Source of the DNA: Candidatus Hadarchaeales archaeon
GTDB lineage: Archaea > Hadarchaeota > Hadarchaeia > Hadarchaeales > Hadarchaeaceae
Direction: 5' to 3'
DNA length: 32,000 nt
Assembly: GCA_038823825.1 (NCBI GenBank)
Contig: JAWBCC010000002.1
Coordinates: forward strand, 60,001-92,000
Shown here: positions 10,053 to 29,288 of the stretch, in pieces
Position numbering within the stretch: the stretch's first letter is position 1
Layout: every line of letters begins with the position of its first letter
Notes under the pieces: generated by a model
Seen by the model: the letters and a program-made list of their open reading frames with translations, nothing else
The model's database searches: none
Told to the model about the DNA's origin: nothing
Position numbers and translations under genes: made by a program

Positions 10053-11243
10053 TCAACGTTGTTTGGAAAGAAGTTTCTCTATCTCTTTCTCTAACCAGAT
10101 AACAGAGACATCCGGGATGCTGACTTTCGAGCTTCTCCCTCTATGGCCTGCACCAGAAGGTTTGACATCGATAATCCCTAAAGAAGCAAGCCTTCTCATA
10201 CATTCCCAGACTTTGCTCGGCGCTTTTGGCTTTTCTCCGTATTCCTCGCAGACAACCTTGTAACTTTCTCTCACATCACCGGTCAAAACATAGACGCTGC
10301 CGGAGATCTTCAGTTTTCTGGCAATCGCTAAAAGGAGAAGCTTCTCGTGAACACCCAGCTGCTCAATCGCTTCTCTTCTAACCTCAGGATAGACGTCTGA
10401 CTTTGCCTCCCTGACATGCTCAGGAAGCACAGCTTTGGATCCGCTTGCGTCCGCGATGTGCCCCGCTCTCCAAAGAAGCTCTAGTGCAAATCTCGCGTTT
10501 CCATACCTAGCGGCGATCTCTGCCACCATCTCCACTACTTCCTCGGCAACCGCACCCGGTTTGAACGCAAGCTCTAGTCTCTGGTTTATGATATCTTTTA
10601 ACTCTTCGGCATTGTATCCGCTCAGCCTGAGCATGTTGTGTATAAAGGTGCTCCTAGTCGGCTGATCGAGTTTATCTATAAACCCCGGATCTCTCGCTAT
10701 TCCGATCATGCTTATTCTGCTTTTCTTTCCCCTTTCCTCTGCCGCTCTCGTAAGAGCATATATGAGTTCGGAACCGTTTATCTTGATGAAATAATCCAGC
10801 TCGTCAAGGGCGAGCAGCAAATATCTGTCGTGCGTCTCCAGATACATGAGCACCATGTCAAGCAATTTCTCAGGAGGAAGACCATGATATGGCCACCTTG
10901 GATTGTACTTTTGTACAAGCTTTCCGTAAATCGCATGAATCGTTTTATCGAGCCTACAGTTTATGTGCACAAAATCTACGTTCCTTCCCTTTCCGCGTGC
11001 GATTTCCTCGAAAGCTGTACCGAACTTGATCGCAAGAACAGTCTTTCCGACCCCGATTTCTCCGACTATCAAAGTGTGTTGACAAGTACCGTGGGTCAAA
11101 AGGGGGCGGTAAACTCTTGCCAGCCATCTCTGCTCCTCTTCTCTGTGCACGATTGATGGCGGGATGTAATCTGGCAAAAGAACATTTGGATCTCTGAAGA
11201 CTGTCGGCCTACGTAATTCTTCTTCCAAAATCTTTGATGACAT
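10053..11243 (-). CDS. cdc6: Orc1/Cdc6 replication initiator paralog (divergent)
   Basis: 396 aa. N-terminal VFRDPNVLLPDYIPPSIVHREEE, Walker A GEIGVGKTV, Walker B LLALDELD, and a C-terminal winged-helix-like region. Confidence 0.85.
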   Translation of the reverse strand: MSSKILEEELRRPTVFRDPNVLLPDYIPPSIVHREEEQRWLARVYRPLLTHGTCQHTLIVGEIGVGKTVLAIKFGTAFEEIARGKGRNVDFVHINCRLDKTIHAIYGKLVQKYNPRWPYHGLPPEKLLDMVLMYLETHDRYLLLALDELDYFIKINGSELIYALTRAAEERGKKSRISMIGIARDPGFIDKLDQPTRSTFIHNMLRLSGYNAEELKDIINQRLELAFKPGAVAEEVVEMVAEIAARYGNARFALELLWRAGHIADASGSKAVLPEHVREAKSDVYPEVRREAIEQLGVHEKLLLLAIARKLKISGSVYVLTGDVRESYKVVCEEYGEKPKAPSKVWECMRRLASLGIIDVKPSGAGHRGRSSKVSIPDVSVIWLEKEIEKLLSKQR

Positions 11244-17657: not shown

Positions 17658-18914
17658 TCAAGGAGAAAGAGAAGCAAAAATTTCCGGACCAACCAGAGAA
17701 AGAATCGCATCTTCTTGAACCAGTGCCTGAACCTGCAGCGGATGAATATTGAGTTTTATTTCCTTTGTTCGTCCGTATCTCCCTCTGTTAACAAGTCTGG
17801 CGCAAATTATTCCTAAAAGGTCTAACTCTGCAATCAAATCTTGTACTCTTCTGCTCGTGAGCACATCCGTTCCGCTCTTGTGGCATATCATCTTGTAGTA
17901 CTCGTAAACTTCACCTGTTGTAACAGGCCTTGGTTTTCTTTGTGCTAGAATGGAAATTGCAAGGAGCACGAGTTTTGATTGCAGCGGAAGAGTTTTTATT
18001 ACCTCGACTATATGATCCTGTTCTATCGTTTCATGAGCTTTCCTGACATGCTCAACCGTAACCGTCTCCGCGCCTTCCTCTTCGGCGATTTCTCCCGCAA
18101 CCCTGAGAAGATCAAGAGCTCTTCTAGCATCTCCGTGTTCCCTTGCCGCGTACGCCGCACAAAGCGGAATAACACCTTCCGCAAGCACACCATCACAGAA
18201 ACTCATCCTCGCTCTCTCTTCCAGAATGTCTCTCAACTGATTGGCATTATATGGTGGAAAAACAACTTCTTCACCGCTAAGACTGCTTCTGACCCTCGCA
18301 TCAAGCATGTTTATAAAACTCAGATTGTTCGATATACCTATGATGCAAGTTCTGGCTTTTTTAAGCTCTAGGTTTACTCTGGTGAGACTGTATAGAACGT
18401 CATCCCCTTCTTTTCTGACCAGCTTGTCTATCTCGTCAAGAACAATGACAACCTGCCTGTTCTCCGCATCCAATGTTTTGACGAAGGCCCGATAGACTTC
18501 ATCCAAGGGCCACCCAGTCCTCGGAATTCTGGGGAGATTTTTTACAACTTCCGATTCCTTCATCTGATCTAGCAGCGTTTCGGCGAGAGATGCGAGAACG
18601 CGATAATGTGTGTTCACGATTTCACAATTGAGATAAAGGACATTCACTTTCATTTGCGAGTTTTTGCTCGCTTCTTCCAATTCTTTTCCCACATATCTGA
18701 CCGTGGCCGTTTTGCCCGTCCCAGGCTTGCCGTAGATCAAAACATTTGAAGGTGTTTCACCTCTTAGAGGAGCCGCAAGTATTCTAGCCAGTTGTTTAAC
18801 CTGCTCATCTCTATGGAGAAGCCTGTCCGGAATGTATGTATGTCGTAAAAATTCTCGGTTTTTGAATATCGGTTTCGTCCTCATGATATCCTCAAACAGG
18901 TTCTTTTGAATCAA
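17658..18914 (-). CDS. cdc6: Orc1/Cdc6 replication initiator (canonical, Pyrococcus-like)
   Basis: 418 aa. LFEDIMRTKPIFKNREFLRHTYIPDRLLHRDEQ, Walker A GKPGTGKT, Walker B VLDEID. The TTG start at 18914 overlaps the upstream gene by 23 nt. The alternative ATG is at 18884. Confidence 0.9.
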   Translation of the reverse strand: MIQKNLFEDIMRTKPIFKNREFLRHTYIPDRLLHRDEQVKQLARILAAPLRGETPSNVLIYGKPGTGKTATVRYVGKELEEASKNSQMKVNVLYLNCEIVNTHYRVLASLAETLLDQMKESEVVKNLPRIPRTGWPLDEVYRAFVKTLDAENRQVVIVLDEIDKLVRKEGDDVLYSLTRVNLELKKARTCIIGISNNLSFINMLDARVRSSLSGEEVVFPPYNANQLRDILEERARMSFCDGVLAEGVIPLCAAYAAREHGDARRALDLLRVAGEIAEEEGAETVTVEHVRKAHETIEQDHIVEVIKTLPLQSKLVLLAISILAQRKPRPVTTGEVYEYYKMICHKSGTDVLTSRRVQDLIAELDLLGIICARLVNRGRYGRTKEIKLNIHPLQVQALVQEDAILSLVGPEIFASLSP

Positions 18915-19395: not shown

Positions 19396-21405
19396 TCATT
19401 TCACCCTGGCGATAAGCCCTTCTTTCGGAGCGTACAATGTCCCCCTCTTTTTTTCTTCCTCTATGACATACTCCACAAAGTCCTCGTCTATTCTTTTTTC
19501 AAGCGCGATACGTTTGACCTGTTCTACTGGTGCCGCGCCACCGTACTCCTTTTCGAGTTCCTCTATTATTTGAAGAACAGTCATCAACTTTTCTCTTTGA
19601 CTCCTTGGCATTCCAGTCATCACCGTGTCGATATCCACGACACCAGCTTCGACATCCAGACCAACCTGTTTCAGACAGTAGTCGACGAGCTGTATCGCCT
19701 TTCTCGCGTCCTCGACTGTCACTTTTTGGCTGAATCTCATTCTGGCATGCGCTTTTGCCAGTCTGATTATCGACTCCAGCTGCCTCGCCGTTATCGGGAG
19801 TGGATGTCCTTTCTGGCTGGCTATTCTTCTCTGTTTAGTGTAGAAGTCTTGGATGAGCTGCTGCGCTTCTTTATCCGTGAACGCCGGATGTACGTTCTTT
19901 TTGGCGTATATCACCATTTTTCTGAGAAGATCAGGCGGAATTGGCGCCTTCAGCGATCTTGGTTTAGAATGAATTGAAATGATGTGCTTGGTAAGTCTGG
20001 CGTCGTCTACCTCTTTTGGGTCATCCCGAAGGATGAATATTAGATCAAACCTTGAGAGAAGAACTGGGTCCAGCGGGATCTGACTTGCAAAGTTCATGTT
20101 CGGATCGAATCTCCCGCCTTTTGGGTTTGTTGCAGCGAGAACGGCGGCTCTTGTGTTCAACCTAGCGACTATGCCTGCCTTAGCTATGCTTATCGTCTGT
20201 TGCTCCATGCTCTCTAGAATCGCCGCGGAATCCTCTTTATCCATCTTTTCGAATTCGTCAATTGCCGCAAGCCCCCCATCGGCAATCACAAGGGCGCCAG
20301 CTTCGAGCGTCCACCCGCTTCCTATTTCATCCCTCACAGCGGTTGCTGTAAGACCCGCTCCAGTCGATTTCATCCCAGATGTATAGACCCCCCGAGGAGC
20401 AACGCTCGCAACCCAATTGAGGAGCTGGCTTTTAGCCGTTCCTGGGTCTCCACTGAGCAATATGTGAATATCTCCACGCACCCTTGACCCATCTGGCAAC
20501 TCTACCGGATCACTTCCGAAGAGCTGAAGAGCAACCGCCTCCTTTATGATCTCGTGACCACTGATCGCCGGAGCTATCGATTTGATGATCTTATCTGTTA
20601 GCTCTGGATCTTTTATCAATTCTTTTATTTTTTCCTCGTCTTCGGGGGTTAACTCAGCTTCCTCTGCGCCCTTCTTTGGAACCTCAATGTGGTTGACTAT
20701 GAAAACCATCTTCAAAATCTTTTCCTTCTTTCCGAATTTTTGAAAAGGCTGAACGTATCCGGTAGCGATCACGTAATCTCCGGGAACGGCACGATCAACA
20801 AAATCATCCCTGACTATTCCATCGAGATGTCTAGGCATCCGCCCGCCTTTCAGCTTTGAGGGAAGATCCTGAAAGCCCAGACTCTGCCAGTCGCAGAACT
20901 CTGTGTTCTCAAGAACCAGTTCAAACGCGTTAGCCCCCCTTGCTTTGCAGTTTGGATTTTCACAAACTAGGGGTTCTATCAGATAATCCCCGATCTGCTC
21001 CCTGCGGTACTCCTCACCACACCTCTTGCATCTGAAGGTGGCAATCTTTATTTCCGGCCTTATCTCGCTTGCCCTGAGAAGAATTCCCTCAATCTGGATG
21101 AACTTCCCCATGTCTTTCGCTCTGATGTCCTTTATGTCCACGGACTTGTCAAGCGACTTTACCCTGAGCTTCATGCCTGGGATTTTCGTGATGCCTTCCA
21201 AGAGAGAGTCCGACAAACGGAAGAATTCTTTCGGATTCTCTAGCAAAAACTTCGCGAGTTTCTCATCGGATTCGACTATCTCATCGTAGGTAACCACTAC
21301 GGATTTCTGACCAGATGCGACGGCTTTTCTTATTTTCTTTTCAAAACTCGAGCTGTACAAGAAATTTTCGAGTATCTCACGTAGATCGCTGTTAGTCAAC
21401 GCCAT
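19396..21405 (-). CDS. mcm: MCM replicative helicase
   Basis: About 669 aa. Zn finger CKRCGEEY...CENPNC, Walker A LLSGDPGTAKSQ, Walker B IDEFEKM, arginine finger SRFDLIF. The ATG at 21405 is directly preceded by GAGAGGTG; the track's start at 21408 is GTG. Confidence 0.92.
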   Translation of the reverse strand: MALTNSDLREILENFLYSSSFEKKIRKAVASGQKSVVVTYDEIVESDEKLAKFLLENPKEFFRLSDSLLEGITKIPGMKLRVKSLDKSVDIKDIRAKDMGKFIQIEGILLRASEIRPEIKIATFRCKRCGEEYRREQIGDYLIEPLVCENPNCKARGANAFELVLENTEFCDWQSLGFQDLPSKLKGGRMPRHLDGIVRDDFVDRAVPGDYVIATGYVQPFQKFGKKEKILKMVFIVNHIEVPKKGAEEAELTPEDEEKIKELIKDPELTDKIIKSIAPAISGHEIIKEAVALQLFGSDPVELPDGSRVRGDIHILLSGDPGTAKSQLLNWVASVAPRGVYTSGMKSTGAGLTATAVRDEIGSGWTLEAGALVIADGGLAAIDEFEKMDKEDSAAILESMEQQTISIAKAGIVARLNTRAAVLAATNPKGGRFDPNMNFASQIPLDPVLLSRFDLIFILRDDPKEVDDARLTKHIISIHSKPRSLKAPIPPDLLRKMVIYAKKNVHPAFTDKEAQQLIQDFYTKQRRIASQKGHPLPITARQLESIIRLAKAHARMRFSQKVTVEDARKAIQLVDYCLKQVGLDVEAGVVDIDTVMTGMPRSQREKLMTVLQIIEELEKEYGGAAPVEQVKRIALEKRIDEDFVEYVIEEEKKRGTLYAPKEGLIARVK

Positions 21406-21459
21406 CACCTCTCGGGTCTGGAAAAATGATTGTGTAAGGGTATTTATTTCTTGTAGTTA

Positions 21460-21530
21460 AAATTTTGTATTCAGCTAAAATATTCTTGTATAAAAACGTT
21501 ATCCTATTTTCAAGTATGAATACAAAATTT
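21460..21530. repeat. 14-bp perfect inverted repeat in an AT-rich tract upstream of mcm
   Basis: AAATTTTGTATTCA at 21460-21473 and its reverse complement TGAATACAAAATTT at 21517-21530, 43 bp apart. Both lie inside the very AT-rich stretch at about 21441-21535. Confidence 0.7.
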
Positions 21531-21724
21531 AAACCAGTTGAATAGCCAAGGTGTTTAGAGAATGATCGCGAGACTCTTACCGCCATACTCTCCCCGATTA
21601 AAACTATTTCAAGAAGAATAGAGGTGTTTTCAGGGAGAGGGGTGCTGGAATGTATTCTTTTATAAGAAACGATTTTTAATTTTCAGAAAAATTTGAAAGA
21701 GTCGAGAACTTTTCTCCTCCTTTC

Positions 21725-21756
21725 TTCCAGTGGAATCAGTGGAAATCAGTGGAAAG
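21725..21756 (+). repeat. Three phased half-ORB (mini-ORB-like) repeats
   Basis: TTCCAGTGGAAT CAGTGGAAAT CAGTGGAAAG. The first unit carries the palindromic ORB core TTCCAGTGGAA. Units are spaced 9-10 bp apart. The array lies 6 bp beyond the glyA stop and about 320-350 bp upstream of the mcm start. Confidence 0.6.
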
Positions 21757-21762
21757 AATGGG

Positions 21763-26097: not shown

Positions 26098-26976
26098 ATG
26101 GACGTTCTCAAGAAATTTGATCCGTGGGGAGACCCTCTCTGCACCTGCCCCCCAAAATATGGGCTAAACCCATATACCGGATGCGAACATCGGTGCGTTT
26201 ACTGCTACATCACATCATACATCCCTCATGCGTTCAAATGTCGACCGAAAAAAGATCTCATCAAAAGACTTGAGAAGGATCTCGCAGTGGCAGACAAAAG
26301 AATGTTTGTTAGCATGTCGAACAGTTCCGACCCATATCCTCCCCAAGAGAGAAGGTTATTCCTTACGCGAAAGTGCTTAGAGATCCTCCTTAAGCATGGA
26401 ATGAACGTTCAAATCATAACGAAGTCGGACCTCGTCGTTCGAGATTGTGACATCCTTTCAGAGGTACCTTCGGTTGTTAGCTTCACGATAACAACGCTTG
26501 ACGAGAGGGTTGCGAAAAAGCTCGAGCCTGGAGCGCCCTCGCCGAAGAGTAGACTAAAAGCCATGCAAAAGCTCTCCGCGGCCGGGATCCCCGTCACTTT
26601 GAGATTAGATCCCATCATCCCTGGTTTGAACGATGATGAAATCGAGAAAATCGTTTGGGCAGCCGTAGAAGCCGGAGCAAAACATGTAACCTCTTCGACG
26701 TTCAAGCCTAGACCAGACAGTTGGAGCAGATTCTCGCTGGCTTTTCCGGAAGAGGCAAAAAATCTCCACGCGTACTTCTTCGAACACGGCTGGAAACATC
26801 ACAACGCCCGTTATCTGCCGAGAAAGTTAAGGAAGAGCTTGATGGAAAGGGTGGAGAAAATTTGCGTTGAAGAAGGAGTGACATTCGCCAGCTGCAGAGA
26901 GGGATTTTCCTTCAAGGCTCCAACTTGTGACGGCTCACATCTTCTCAAAAGCTGGCGGCCTGTGCATGTTTGCTGA
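26098..26976 (+). CDS. Radical SAM protein, SplB/COG1533-like
   Basis: 292 aa. NPYTGCEHRCVYCY contains the CxxxCxxC cluster in the context typical of SplB-like radical SAM enzymes. Confidence 0.75.
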   Translation: MDVLKKFDPWGDPLCTCPPKYGLNPYTGCEHRCVYCYITSYIPHAFKCRPKKDLIKRLEKDLAVADKRMFVSMSNSSDPYPPQERRLFLTRKCLEILLKHGMNVQIITKSDLVVRDCDILSEVPSVVSFTITTLDERVAKKLEPGAPSPKSRLKAMQKLSAAGIPVTLRLDPIIPGLNDDEIEKIVWAAVEAGAKHVTSSTFKPRPDSWSRFSLAFPEEAKNLHAYFFEHGWKHHNARYLPRKLRKSLMERVEKICVEEGVTFASCREGFSFKAPTCDGSHLLKSWRPVHVC

Positions 26977-27877
26977 CGAACAGCTTTTGGAGCACGTAGA
27001 AAGGAGCAGTTGGAATCCTCCATTCTGTCGCTTTTACGAAATCGGTTGTCGCATCGATTGGCAGGAATCTATTAACTTCATCTGGATTTAGGGGTAGGGA
27101 AACCAGCCCGGTGCTGGGGTTCAGGCTCATCGGCGCCAAAAGAAGGCCTCGCCTGATCCTCAGCTCGGAGAGGAGGCTTTCGCCCGATTCTCTGACGATT
27201 TTTACTTTTGATCCCTGCCAAACGATTTCTGCGTCCGGAAGGCGCTCGCGAAGATAGCCCACCACAGCCACCGTAAGCTTCTGGTGAAGCTCGTCGAGAG
27301 CGGACGGATTTCCCATCCAGATTTCCTGCGGAATTCCCTCAAGGGGAAGCACAAGATCAAAGCCGAGATTTCCATCGTATTTCAGCCAGAGGTCTACGCC
27401 AATTTCTTTGAAGCCCTCCAGAACATTTGTGGTTATCTCTTTGGCTTCAGATATACCTCCTTTGACGGCACGAACTGCCCAGACGAGATCTCTCCCGACA
27501 GGTTCCAGTCCGGGCGCGTCGTACCGCCAGTATGTGCCGTAGAAAGCAATCGCTCCCTGTTTTAGAAGAAAGTCCAGAGCTGTGCTGTCTATCTTCATGG
27601 GAATTCTCTGATCTCCCACAGTGATGTATCTCTGGATAGACTTCACTCTTCTGTTGTATACTGCTCCCTCTCGCACCAAGCCATCGGAAGGACTCATGTA
27701 GTTTGCGAGCGCCCTCCGAACGTCCGTCCGCAGGTAGTATCGCATGCGATTCCCGATTTTAAATTGTACGTCAGAAGCCCGGTTCTTTTTGGAGAGAGGG
27801 GTAGAGGAACATATTCCCACCATCCACACGAGTTTGAATCCGAACCGATTTTTATCTTCGGAACCAGACCCCTTCAT
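26945..27877 (-). CDS. PriS-like archaeo-eukaryotic primase homolog with substituted catalytic residues (predicted inactive)
   Basis: Collinear by eye with Pyrococcus PriS (residue numbers follow the 312-aa track ORF that starts at the GTG at 27883). AIAFYGTYWRYDAP matches APYAVYSSVALYEKP. LVWAVRAV (aa 133-140) matches LVFDIDAK. AKEI is shared. YDGNLGFDLVL (aa 169-179) matches YSGRGYHIRVL. ELRIRRGLLLAPMSLNPSTGL matches DLKRILRLPSTLHSKVGL. The ATG at 27877 is used here. The true start is uncertain; internal Mets exist at aa 21 and 47. Confidence 0.55.
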   Translation of the reverse strand: MKGSGSEDKNRFGFKLVWMVGICSSTPLSKKNRASDVQFKIGNRMRYYLRTDVRRALANYMSPSDGLVREGAVYNRRVKSIQRYITVGDQRIPMKIDSTALDFLLKQGAIAFYGTYWRYDAPGLEPVGRDLVWAVRAVKGGISEAKEITTNVLEGFKEIGVDLWLKYDGNLGFDLVLPLEGIPQEIWMGNPSALDELHQKLTVAVVGYLRERLPDAEIVWQGSKVKIVRESGESLLSELRIRRGLLLAPMSLNPSTGLVSLPLNPDEVNRFLPIDATTDFVKATEWRIPTAPFYVLQKLFVSKHAQAASF

Positions 27878-27888
27878 TTCCACTGGAG
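27868..27888 (-). promoter_or_regulatory. ORB-like origin recognition box A (full length)
   Basis: The minus strand reads CTCCAGTGGAAATGAAGGGGT, that is dyad core TCCAGTGGAAA + 4 nt + GGGGT. It overlaps the first codons of the PriS-like ORF. Confidence 0.65.
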
Positions 27889-27943
27889 ATTTATCCTATT
27901 TTTTGGCAAAGTATTTATGATAATAAAATATCATAACATTAGA
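27889..27943. other. AT-rich tract (candidate DNA unwinding element and/or divergent promoter)
   Basis: 55 bp containing 10 G/C (18% GC) against a roughly 50% background. It lies immediately inside ORB-A. Confidence 0.5.
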
Positions 27944-28297
27944 ATGAACGAATTCGATCTGGGCTGGATAATCGGCTTCATAGAGTGTGCGGGAAGCTTT
28001 ACAAAAAACACAATCATCATAGCGAAGAATGGAAAGAAATACATCTACGTGACACCACAATTTTTCCTAACGTTAAGTGACCCTTCCGCAGTGGAAACCG
28101 TTCAGAGACTTTTGAGGATGGGGAAAATAACCCTCGGCGGAAGGAGACTCGAAATAAGAAGGAAAGAAGAGCTTTTGAGGTTCGCGGAGCTCCTTTCTGG
28201 CCGGCTCAAAACAGACAGGCGGCAGAGAGAGTTTGAAAGCTGGGTCAGGCTTCTGCTCCAGTGGAAAGAGAGGGGTAGTAGGCATACATCAGAATAA
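27944..28297 (+). CDS. Small single-domain LAGLIDADG-like protein, catalytic Asp replaced
   Basis: 117 aa from the ATG at 27944: MNEFDLGWIIGFIECAGSF.... The IGFIECAGS motif aligns to LAGFVDGDGS. Downstream, FFLTLSDPSAVETVQRLLRMGKI and LEIRRKEELLRFAELL fit the LAGLIDADG fold pattern. The track's upstream extension to 27764 crosses the AT-rich tract and the PriS-like gene, so it was not used. Confidence 0.55.
   Translation: MNEFDLGWIIGFIECAGSFTKNTIIIAKNGKKYIYVTPQFFLTLSDPSAVETVQRLLRMGKITLGGRRLEIRRKEELLRFAELLSGRLKTDRRQREFESWVRLLLQWKERGSRHTSE
28084..28098 (+). promoter_or_regulatory. Mini-ORB-like half site
   Basis: TTCCGCAGTGGAAAC contains the CAGTGGAAA 9-mer shared with both ORB boxes and with the repeats upstream of mcm. 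It lies inside the LAGLIDADG-like ORF. Confidence 0.35.
28256..28276 (+). promoter_or_regulatory. ORB-like origin recognition box B (full length)
   Basis: The plus strand reads CTCCAGTGGAAAGAGAGGGGT. It is 18/21 identical to box A, in inverted orientation, 367 bp away, and 50 bp upstream of the tyrS GTG. Confidence 0.65.
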
Positions 28298-28325
28298 AAA
28301 TAAAAGACGAGGGAGAGTAAAACCT

Positions 28326-29288
28326 GTGGAGGAAAAACTCAGATTGGCGTTAAGGGGAACGCAGGAAGTAGTCACGGAGGGAGAGCTTCGTCAAGTTATC
28401 TCCAGAGGAAGATTCTCGGCATACTGCGGTTATGAGCCATCTGGAAAGATACACTTCGGGCATTGGTTGACCGTGAAGAAACTTCGAGATCTGCAAGAGA
28501 TTGGAGCCAGAGTGGTGGTTTTACTCGCGGACCTTCACGCATATCTCAACCACAAAGGAACGCTGGAGGAAGTGAGAAAAATCGCCGAGTATAACAGGGA
28601 ATGCTTTATCGCTCTCGGTTTGAATCCAAATAAAACAGAGTTCAAACTCGGGTCGGAGTTCCAACTCACGCCGGAATTCATGTTCGACGTTCTCAGAATG
28701 GCAACCGGCACGACTCTTTTGAGAGCGAGAAGGTCGATGACGGAAATAGCTAGAAAACTTGAAGATCCAGACGTTGCGCAAGTTCTCTATCCTCTCATGC
28801 AGGCGTTAGATATCGCGCATCTCAAAATAGATGTAGCGGTCGGAGGAATGGATCAGCGGAAGGTTCACATGATCGCCCGCGAAAAACTGCCGGATCTCGG
28901 ATATCAAAAACCAGTCTGCCTCCATACACCGCTTCTCCATGGGCTCGATGGCGCGGACAAAATGTCCTCAAGCAAACAAAACTTTGTGGCTGTTGATGAT
29001 CCACCGGATGAGATAAGGCGGAAAATACAGAAAGCATACTGCCCACCGAAGATCGTGGATGGAAATCCAGTGGTAGAATACGCCGAGCACATAGTTTTGG
29101 CAGAGCTCGGAAAACTTGAGATAGAGAGGCCGGAGAAATACGGGGGGAGACTCGTCATTCAAGATGTTTCAGAGTTACGCAAACTTTATTCTGGAGGAAA
29201 ATTACATCCGGCAGATCTGAAGTCGGCTGTCGCGGAAGCCGTTGTTGAGATTTTAGAGCCGGTCAGACGGCATTTTGGAATCTATTGA
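28326..29288 (+). CDS. tyrS: Tyrosyl-tRNA synthetase (archaeal type)
   Basis: YEPSGKIHFGH (HIGH) and KMSSS (KMSKS). The GTG at 28326 gives about 320 aa, with the same N-terminal spacing to the HIGH motif as M. jannaschii TyrRS, and GGGAGAG lies 8 nt upstream. The track's start at 28233 adds a low-complexity extension overlapping the previous gene. Confidence 0.9.
   Translation: MEEKLRLALRGTQEVVTEGELRQVISRGRFSAYCGYEPSGKIHFGHWLTVKKLRDLQEIGARVVVLLADLHAYLNHKGTLEEVRKIAEYNRECFIALGLNPNKTEFKLGSEFQLTPEFMFDVLRMATGTTLLRARRSMTEIARKLEDPDVAQVLYPLMQALDIAHLKIDVAVGGMDQRKVHMIAREKLPDLGYQKPVCLHTPLLHGLDGADKMSSSKQNFVAVDDPPDEIRRKIQKAYCPPKIVDGNPVVEYAEHIVLAELGKLEIERPEKYGGRLVIQDVSELRKLYSGGKLHPADLKSAVAEAVVEILEPVRRHFGIY

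Follow-up and report, generated by a model that had tools for sequence, protein, structure and literature searches.

A small open reading frame lies between two inverted ORB boxes in the genome of a Candidatus Hadarchaeales archaeon and resembles a LAGLIDADG protein. The locus raises the question of whether this frame is a genuine gene and, if so, whether its product is a homing endonuclease, the remnant of one, or a protein that the host retains at its replication origin. The window, which is the whole 32,000-nucleotide stretch of DNA that was analysed, contains the frame at 27944-28297 on the plus strand. It has 117 codons and its translation starts with MNEFDLGWIIGFIECAGSF, exactly as in a preliminary description of this DNA made from the letters and their open reading frames. 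The frame is referred to below as the mini gene and its product as the mini protein.

Conservation of the mini gene and its neighbourhood

In a six-frame search over 60 relatives, uninterrupted homologs of the mini gene are found in at least 22 other Hadarchaeota genomes (E ≤ 1e-16, 33–64% identity). The 22 carriers belong to seven genera and two families of one order. No frameshift or stop codon is present in any ortholog examined. Across orthologs the mini protein is 108–141 amino acids long, and it is strongly basic in 20 of 20 (pI 9.7–11.0, with 10.2 for the window protein). Gene order is kept along with the frame: a divergent primase-like gene, the mini gene, and the gene for tyrosyl-tRNA synthetase (TyrRS). 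The preliminary description had named conservation and synteny in relatives as a check on the gene, and both are found. An Rfam search of window positions 27500-28500 gives no match. The frame encodes a real protein with a single LAGLIDADG_1 domain, and the gene is conserved across the order.

The left-hand neighbour (26945..27745, minus strand) encodes a 266-aa primase-like (AEP) protein that starts with MRYYLRTDV and is assigned from synteny, alignment and weak similarity to Prim1/PriS and LigD Prim-Pol. This protein is conserved, and its catalytic motifs are substituted: the DxD motif is replaced by DLVWTVRA and SGxRGxH by SGxLGFD. A canonical PriS is encoded elsewhere in the genome (C1:433501-434091). 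The conserved right-hand flank is the TyrRS gene (28326..29288, plus strand), identified by synteny and by its match to Pfam tRNA-synt_1b (5e-53).

Among six close pairs of orthologs, dN/dS of the mini gene is 0.08–0.27 at dS values of 0.6–2.3. Low dN together with high dS indicates selection on the protein, beyond any selection on the DNA alone. The preliminary description had offered a decayed homing endonuclease as one reading of the frame. The intact frames in all orthologs examined and the low dN/dS do not support this reading and indicate that the mini protein is maintained, not decayed.

Many genera of the same order among the 60 relatives lack the mini gene, which is therefore not essential for origin function. 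Within genera, its presence is uniform. In the mini-protein tree the split between the two families has 100/99 support, and no genus is divided by a well-supported branch. At the 20 or more loci examined, which span both families, the mini gene always lies inside the spacer between the ORB boxes. We infer that it has been inherited vertically since its fixation.

A weak mini-gene-like match (29% identity, E 2e-6) is present in the genome of relative G052 (G052:C8:12831-13121), which has the 187-aa gene described below on another contig. This match could stem from a LAGLIDADG_1 paralog that lies away from the origin. The mini gene and the primase-like gene also occur in the Hadarchaeota arrangement on a 3.7-kb contig labelled Bathyarchaeota (L030, JBBIVD010000178.1); the label is probably a binning or labelling issue.

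Family, fold and catalytic position

The window protein searched alone has no Pfam or NCBIfam match. Its family membership emerges from the orthologs, 22 of 28 of which match PF00961 (LAGLIDADG_1) in Pfam, with a best value of 3.3e-14. The ortholog profile matches the solved structures of I-AabMI (2.6e-15), I-TnaI (5e-12) and I-Vdi141I (2e-11), and a whole-library phmmer search reaches two-domain LAGLIDADG proteins. No second LAGLIDADG_1 match is present anywhere in this genome. The WhiA domain is matched faintly by only one of the 28 orthologs (0.067), and the mini protein has no HTH match.

The AlphaFold2 model built from the ortholog alignment (pLDDT 91.5) predicts an alpha-beta-beta-alpha-beta-beta-alpha core. 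It consists of a helix at residues 3–16, strands at 17–28 and 31–43, a helix at 47–57, strands at 61–63 and 68–71, and a helix at 74–84, followed by an extra long C-terminal helix at 91–112. The fold assignment rests on this alignment-based model; structure prediction from the single sequence is poor (pLDDT 44.6). The top Foldseek ranks are I-TnaI (TM 0.77, probability 1.00), I-Vdi141I, I-CeuI and I-CreI-derived enzymes, with TM values of 0.63–0.77. These profile and structure searches, which the preliminary description had named as a check, confirm the single LAGLIDADG domain of this topology that it had proposed.

In the profile alignment, the family motif IEAKG aligns onto VDGEG of I-TnaI. 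This places the first acidic residue at E14 of the window protein and the catalytic position at A16, and so confirms the Ala that had been reported in place of the catalytic acidic residue. The first acidic residue is nearly invariant among orthologs, and the Gly of the motif is also conserved. The catalytic position, which we take to be that of D20 in I-CreI, is Lys in 11 of 20 orthologs, Glu in five, Ala in two, Arg in one and Cys in one; it is thus non-acidic in 15 of the 20. LAGLIDADG enzymes require an acidic residue at this position for cleavage. The five orthologs that keep Glu may include some that still cut.

The similarity to the LAGLIDADG_1 profile and the core fold are both present, while an acidic catalytic residue, mobility, and residence in an intron or intein are not. 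Judged from sequence and predicted structure, the window protein is a LAGLIDADG_1 member by descent and by fold, not as an active enzyme. The mini gene is free-standing, with its own AT-rich upstream region and no host ORF around it, which bears out its earlier placement outside an intron or intein.

The residues at the catalytic position bear on a rival explanation, in which the mini gene remains a selfish element, a homing endonuclease gene that is active in the Glu lineages and freshly inactivated elsewhere, including this genome, with purifying selection arising from continuing homing. Glu in five of 20 orthologs is as expected under this explanation. However, none of the 15 orthologs without the acidic residue is frameshifted or stopped. 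The dN/dS of Lys-type pairs (0.08–0.09) is as low as that of Glu-type pairs (0.12), so the function that is maintained is independent of cleavage.

ORB boxes and the DNA between them

ORB box A (27868..27888, minus strand) and ORB box B (28256..28276, plus strand) enclose the mini gene, in keeping with the preliminary description. They are the arms of a 21-nt inverted repeat, 86% complementary and 367 nt apart. In both arms CTCCAGTGGAAA occurs without mismatch and is followed by a GGGGT tail. In ORB A, the dyad and this G-string are on the minus strand, and the G-string is directed away from the mini gene. The two boxes are the sole zero-mismatch matches to the ORB core in the 1.05-Mb genome. 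ORB A is conserved about 60 bp 5' of the start codon at nearly all orthologous loci, and it is present also at loci without the gene. ORB B is conserved across both families.

The DNA between ORB A and the start codon (27889..27943) is AT-rich, with about 30% GC, and by its composition is a candidate unwinding element. It contains a TTATG(A/T)TA element at 27914-27923, the centre of which is about 26 nt before the ATG and about 25 bp from ORB A. This element is BRE/TATA-like, and its position is that expected of a TATA box from which a leaderless mRNA would be made. It is conserved, and its spacing from ORB A is constant across loci. As it is present also in spacers without the gene, it is either older than the mini gene or of use to the origin itself.

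A perfect 22-bp palindrome (27915-27936, TTATGATA-N6-TATCATAA) overlaps the TATA-like element. Its size and symmetry would fit the site of a homodimeric LAGLIDADG protein. The palindrome is limited to this genus, where it is common to the window's genome and its closest relative (L002). It was considered as a conserved target and rejected because only these two closest genomes share it, and no palindromic target in the spacer is common to all genera compared.

ORB B is also coding sequence. It corresponds to codons 105–111 of the mini gene (L-Q-W-K-E-R-G), and the preliminary description had placed it correctly within the last codons. A mini-ORB-like site, CCGCAGTGGAAA, lies in the middle of the gene (28086..28097, plus strand; codons S-A-V-E) and has 2 mismatches in 12. 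The same codons have 0–2 mismatches in 15 of 17 orthologs of one family (f1), and the site is absent from the other (f2). The mid-gene mini-ORB of the preliminary description is therefore borne out only in part, as a family-level site with raised synonymous conservation that is weaker in the window itself.

Codon use is constrained at both sites. At the mid-gene site, TCT is used in 10 of 13 orthologs, CTG in 10 of 13 and GAA in 16 of 17, clearly more often than in the remaining Ser, Leu and Glu columns; at ORB B, all 17 same-family orthologs use AGG for Arg110, against a top-codon share of 33–41% at other Arg columns; all of these counts overstate independence, as the genomes are mutual relatives. 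The AGG of Arg110 forms the first letters of the ORB B G-string. In two genera, ORB B has the variant YTSGAGTGGAAATCAAGGGC, which encodes LEWKSRAW. The same variant is at the same place in relatives G027 and G009, both of which lack the mini gene. Its persistence without the gene indicates that the DNA element dictates the C-terminal peptide and not the reverse.

The constraint on ORB B and the mini-ORB inside the frame is what would be seen if the frame encoded no functional protein and were open only through conservation of the origin DNA. This explanation is extremely improbable. It is largely refuted by low non-synonymous divergence at high dS. Moreover, synonymous codons vary freely outside the two ORB-like sites, the translation is confidently predicted to adopt a known protein fold, and an 80-bp spacer is enough for the origins of relatives.

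Assignment of the probable chromosomal origin

The ORB boxes and the DNA between them very probably make up the chromosomal origin in Hadarchaeales archaea. This assignment is well supported but not proven. Inverted ORB boxes, each with dyad and G-string, flank an AT-rich region, and this arrangement is kept in relatives. A replication island on the minus strand of the window encodes MCM (19396-21408), a GINS-like protein, Orc1/Cdc6 (17658-18914), PolD DP1, PolD DP2 and a second Orc1/Cdc6 (10053-11243). The genes for MCM, GINS, Orc1, PolD and the second Orc1 are 6–18 kb from the ORB pair. No initiator gene is adjacent to the boxes; the nearest orc1/cdc6 gene is that at 17658-18914, within the replication island and about 9 kb away.

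GC skew was compared in three genomes. In relative G010, which lacks the mini gene, the orthologous ORB is at 791,087 of a 1,030,738-bp contig and the global minimum of cumulative GC skew is at 791,000. In the mini-gene carrier G037, the locus (326.4–326.7 kb) is a local skew minimum and the global minimum of the contig is 39 kb away; the ORB pair is again the sole perfect pair. On the window's own contig, the skew minimum at 87 kb is only local, and at 250 kb this contig is too short for its skew to be informative.

Further elements occur in the vicinity of the replication genes. A 354-bp AT-rich intergenic region 5' of the MCM gene (21409-21762) contains three tandem CAGTGGAA(A)T half-ORB repeats at 21725-21757. 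A G-rich element, GGAGAGRGGT-N-GGAA-N-TATTC, is present 5' of the primase-like gene (27785-27815) and 5' of the MCM gene (21630-21660). Similar G-rich copies precede the primase-like gene in relatives G005 and G010 and the LAGLIDADG_3 gene of G027 described below (L043:1285-1320). The element might serve replication genes in common, as a promoter or a regulatory box.

Spacer states in related genomes

In G005 and G010, the spacers between the ORB boxes are empty. They measure about 75–90 bp around an AT-rich stretch, which is the textbook layout of an origin. In genera without the mini gene, the primase-like gene and ORB A are separated by a gene for a 187-aa protein (for example L039:1857-2423, minus strand, and L038:4115-4678, plus strand); this gene is not found in the window's genome. 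The 187-aa protein has no Pfam or NCBIfam match, and its Atlas cluster is named 'hypothetical protein'. Among the 60 relatives, 22 have the mini gene, 26 have the 187-aa gene and one has weak matches to both, so that the two genes are almost perfectly complementary. This complementarity was considered as evidence for functional replacement and set aside, because the states are clustered on the TyrRS tree (1–4 changes) and thus allow no claim of independent correlation.

In G027, the inter-ORB spacer contains a different LAGLIDADG gene. It encodes a 206-aa protein with two motifs (LAGLIDADG_3, Pfam 7.5e-20) and lies on the opposite strand (L043:631-1251, minus strand). This gene and the mini gene are at best very distant kin (hhalign probability 8.5%). 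Genomes with a TyrRS almost identical to that of G027, which form a near-identical species cluster, lack the LAGLIDADG_3 gene. In G009, which belongs to another genus, a decayed LAGLIDADG_3 fragment is present at the same place (L053:1504-1617; 74% identity over 38 residues). From these comparisons, the LAGLIDADG_3 gene behaves as a selfish element of the gain-and-decay type, with an active or recent cycle at the origin.

The presence of a second LAGLIDADG gene and of a decayed fragment indicates that LAGLIDADG genes land in this spacer repeatedly. The preliminary description had suggested that a homing endonuclease once invaded the origin, and this suggestion gains support from the empty inter-ORB spacers and from the different LAGLIDADG gene in one relative. 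The mini gene itself is unlike a gain-and-decay element because its tree follows families and genera.

The spacer states also bear on whether the mini gene is still a selfish element. Its presence is patchy at the level of genera, about three state changes are needed on the best TyrRS tree, and another LAGLIDADG gene in the same spacer shows the gain-and-decay pattern, all of which is compatible with continued homing. Uniform presence within genera and a protein tree that follows families and genera argue against it, as do the intact frames and low dN/dS of the orthologs without the acidic residue. A still-selfish mini gene is accordingly regarded as quite improbable.

Proposed history and function

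The favoured reading, which we hold to be somewhat probable, is that the gene of a homing endonuclease entered the spacer of the origin, became fixed, and was then domesticated as a basic, non-cleaving DNA-binding dimer, a function that is predicted from the sequence. It accords with the origin-associated DNA-binding factor that the preliminary description had put forward as one possibility. In the ancestor of the two families, a gene for a homodimer-type homing endonuclease would have entered the short AT-rich spacer between the ORB boxes. It would have read through into ORB B and become fixed. The mini protein, no longer cutting, would be a basic homodimer that recognises a specific DNA sequence with its LAGLIDADG beta-sheet saddle.

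LAGLIDADG proteins bind DNA close to where their genes inserted. Given this behaviour, and since the mini gene is never found outside the spacer, origin DNA would be the most plausible target, in particular the region that the ancestor once targeted, within the AT-rich spacer or beside it. The position of the promoter-like element in the spacer near ORB A suggests that Orc1 occupancy and transcription of the mini gene are probably coupled and likely to interfere with one another. Transcription of the gene would run across both the mini-ORB and ORB B.

A domesticated protein could have a host function away from the origin, such as maturase-type RNA binding or the regulation of a distant gene, in which case the position of its gene would be a historical accident. 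Known nuclease-dead LAGLIDADG derivatives do act on other substrates, origins without the mini gene exist, and no conserved candidate site specific to gene-bearing origins was found in the comparison. Yet in at least 20 loci from two families the gene never leaves the spacer, the promoter-like element lies near ORB A, and the coding sequence contains ORB B and the mini-ORB under synonymous constraint. A function away from the origin is therefore rather unlikely.

Domestication at the origin may also be given a more specific form, which is offered tentatively as a possible but doubtful extension. The homing endonuclease would have become a dedicated origin factor, a nuclease-dead dimer that binds and bends the AT-rich spacer of oriC and modulates how Orc1 is loaded or how the DNA opens. 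Orc1 at ORB A would in turn control expression of the mini gene, and the 187-aa protein would fill the same role in sister lineages. If this were true, the origin would encode its own accessory protein.

The spacer states (empty, with a different LAGLIDADG gene, or with a decayed fragment) form, together with the mini gene, a natural series from selfish element to retained host gene. If the mini protein binds origin DNA, it would represent a new class of archaeal origin accessory factor and a clean case of endonuclease domestication in archaea.

Comparison with known systems

The closest likeness is to the homodimeric homing endonucleases of archaea and organelles, including I-TnaI (5gkk), I-Vdi141I (3e54), I-CeuI and I-CreI. 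The mini protein has a single LAGLIDADG domain with, by prediction, the same fold, and it keeps the first acidic residue and the motif Gly of the I-TnaI/I-CreI type. It is shorter (108–141 aa, compared with about 150–170 in the homodimeric enzymes) and is encoded outside an rRNA intron or intein. Unlike these enzymes, it has Ala in place of the catalytic acidic residue here and mostly Lys in orthologs. Its gene is stably inherited under purifying selection inside an origin, and its C-terminus is encoded by an ORB box.

WhiA and the organellar intron maturases are established examples in which the LAGLIDADG scaffold is kept for a host function after catalysis is lost; the maturases act on RNA, and WhiA acts through its HTH (a review is PMC3384342). 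The maturases sit in introns, and WhiA consists of two degenerate LAGLIDADG domains and a C-terminal HTH. The mini protein, by contrast, has one domain only, is free-standing, measures 117 aa and has no HTH. The likeness of the mini protein to WhiA and the maturases is thus one of analogy only.

A non-initiator protein that binds a specific motif at archaeal origins is known from Sulfolobus, where UBP binds the ucm motif (PMC12141716). UBP differs from the mini protein in that it has an unrelated fold, is a genome-wide nucleoid protein and is encoded outside the origin; binding by the mini protein is only predicted. A literature search returned no paper that places a LAGLIDADG gene inside an archaeal origin, nor any on Hadarchaeota origins.

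In the canonical archaeal oriC, inverted ORB boxes flank an AT-rich unwinding element beside orc1/cdc6 (PMC4010727). The locus described here shares with it the inverted ORB boxes with dyad and G-string, AT-rich DNA next to ORB A, an island of replication genes in the vicinity and, at the orthologous site of a relative, the GC-skew minimum. It differs in the distance of 367 bp between the boxes and in that of 9 kb to orc1. Archaeal origins are portrayed as a short unwinding element enclosed by ORB boxes; at this locus, a conserved coding gene fills most of the space between the boxes, and one ORB box is read in two ways, as a candidate initiator site and as codons.
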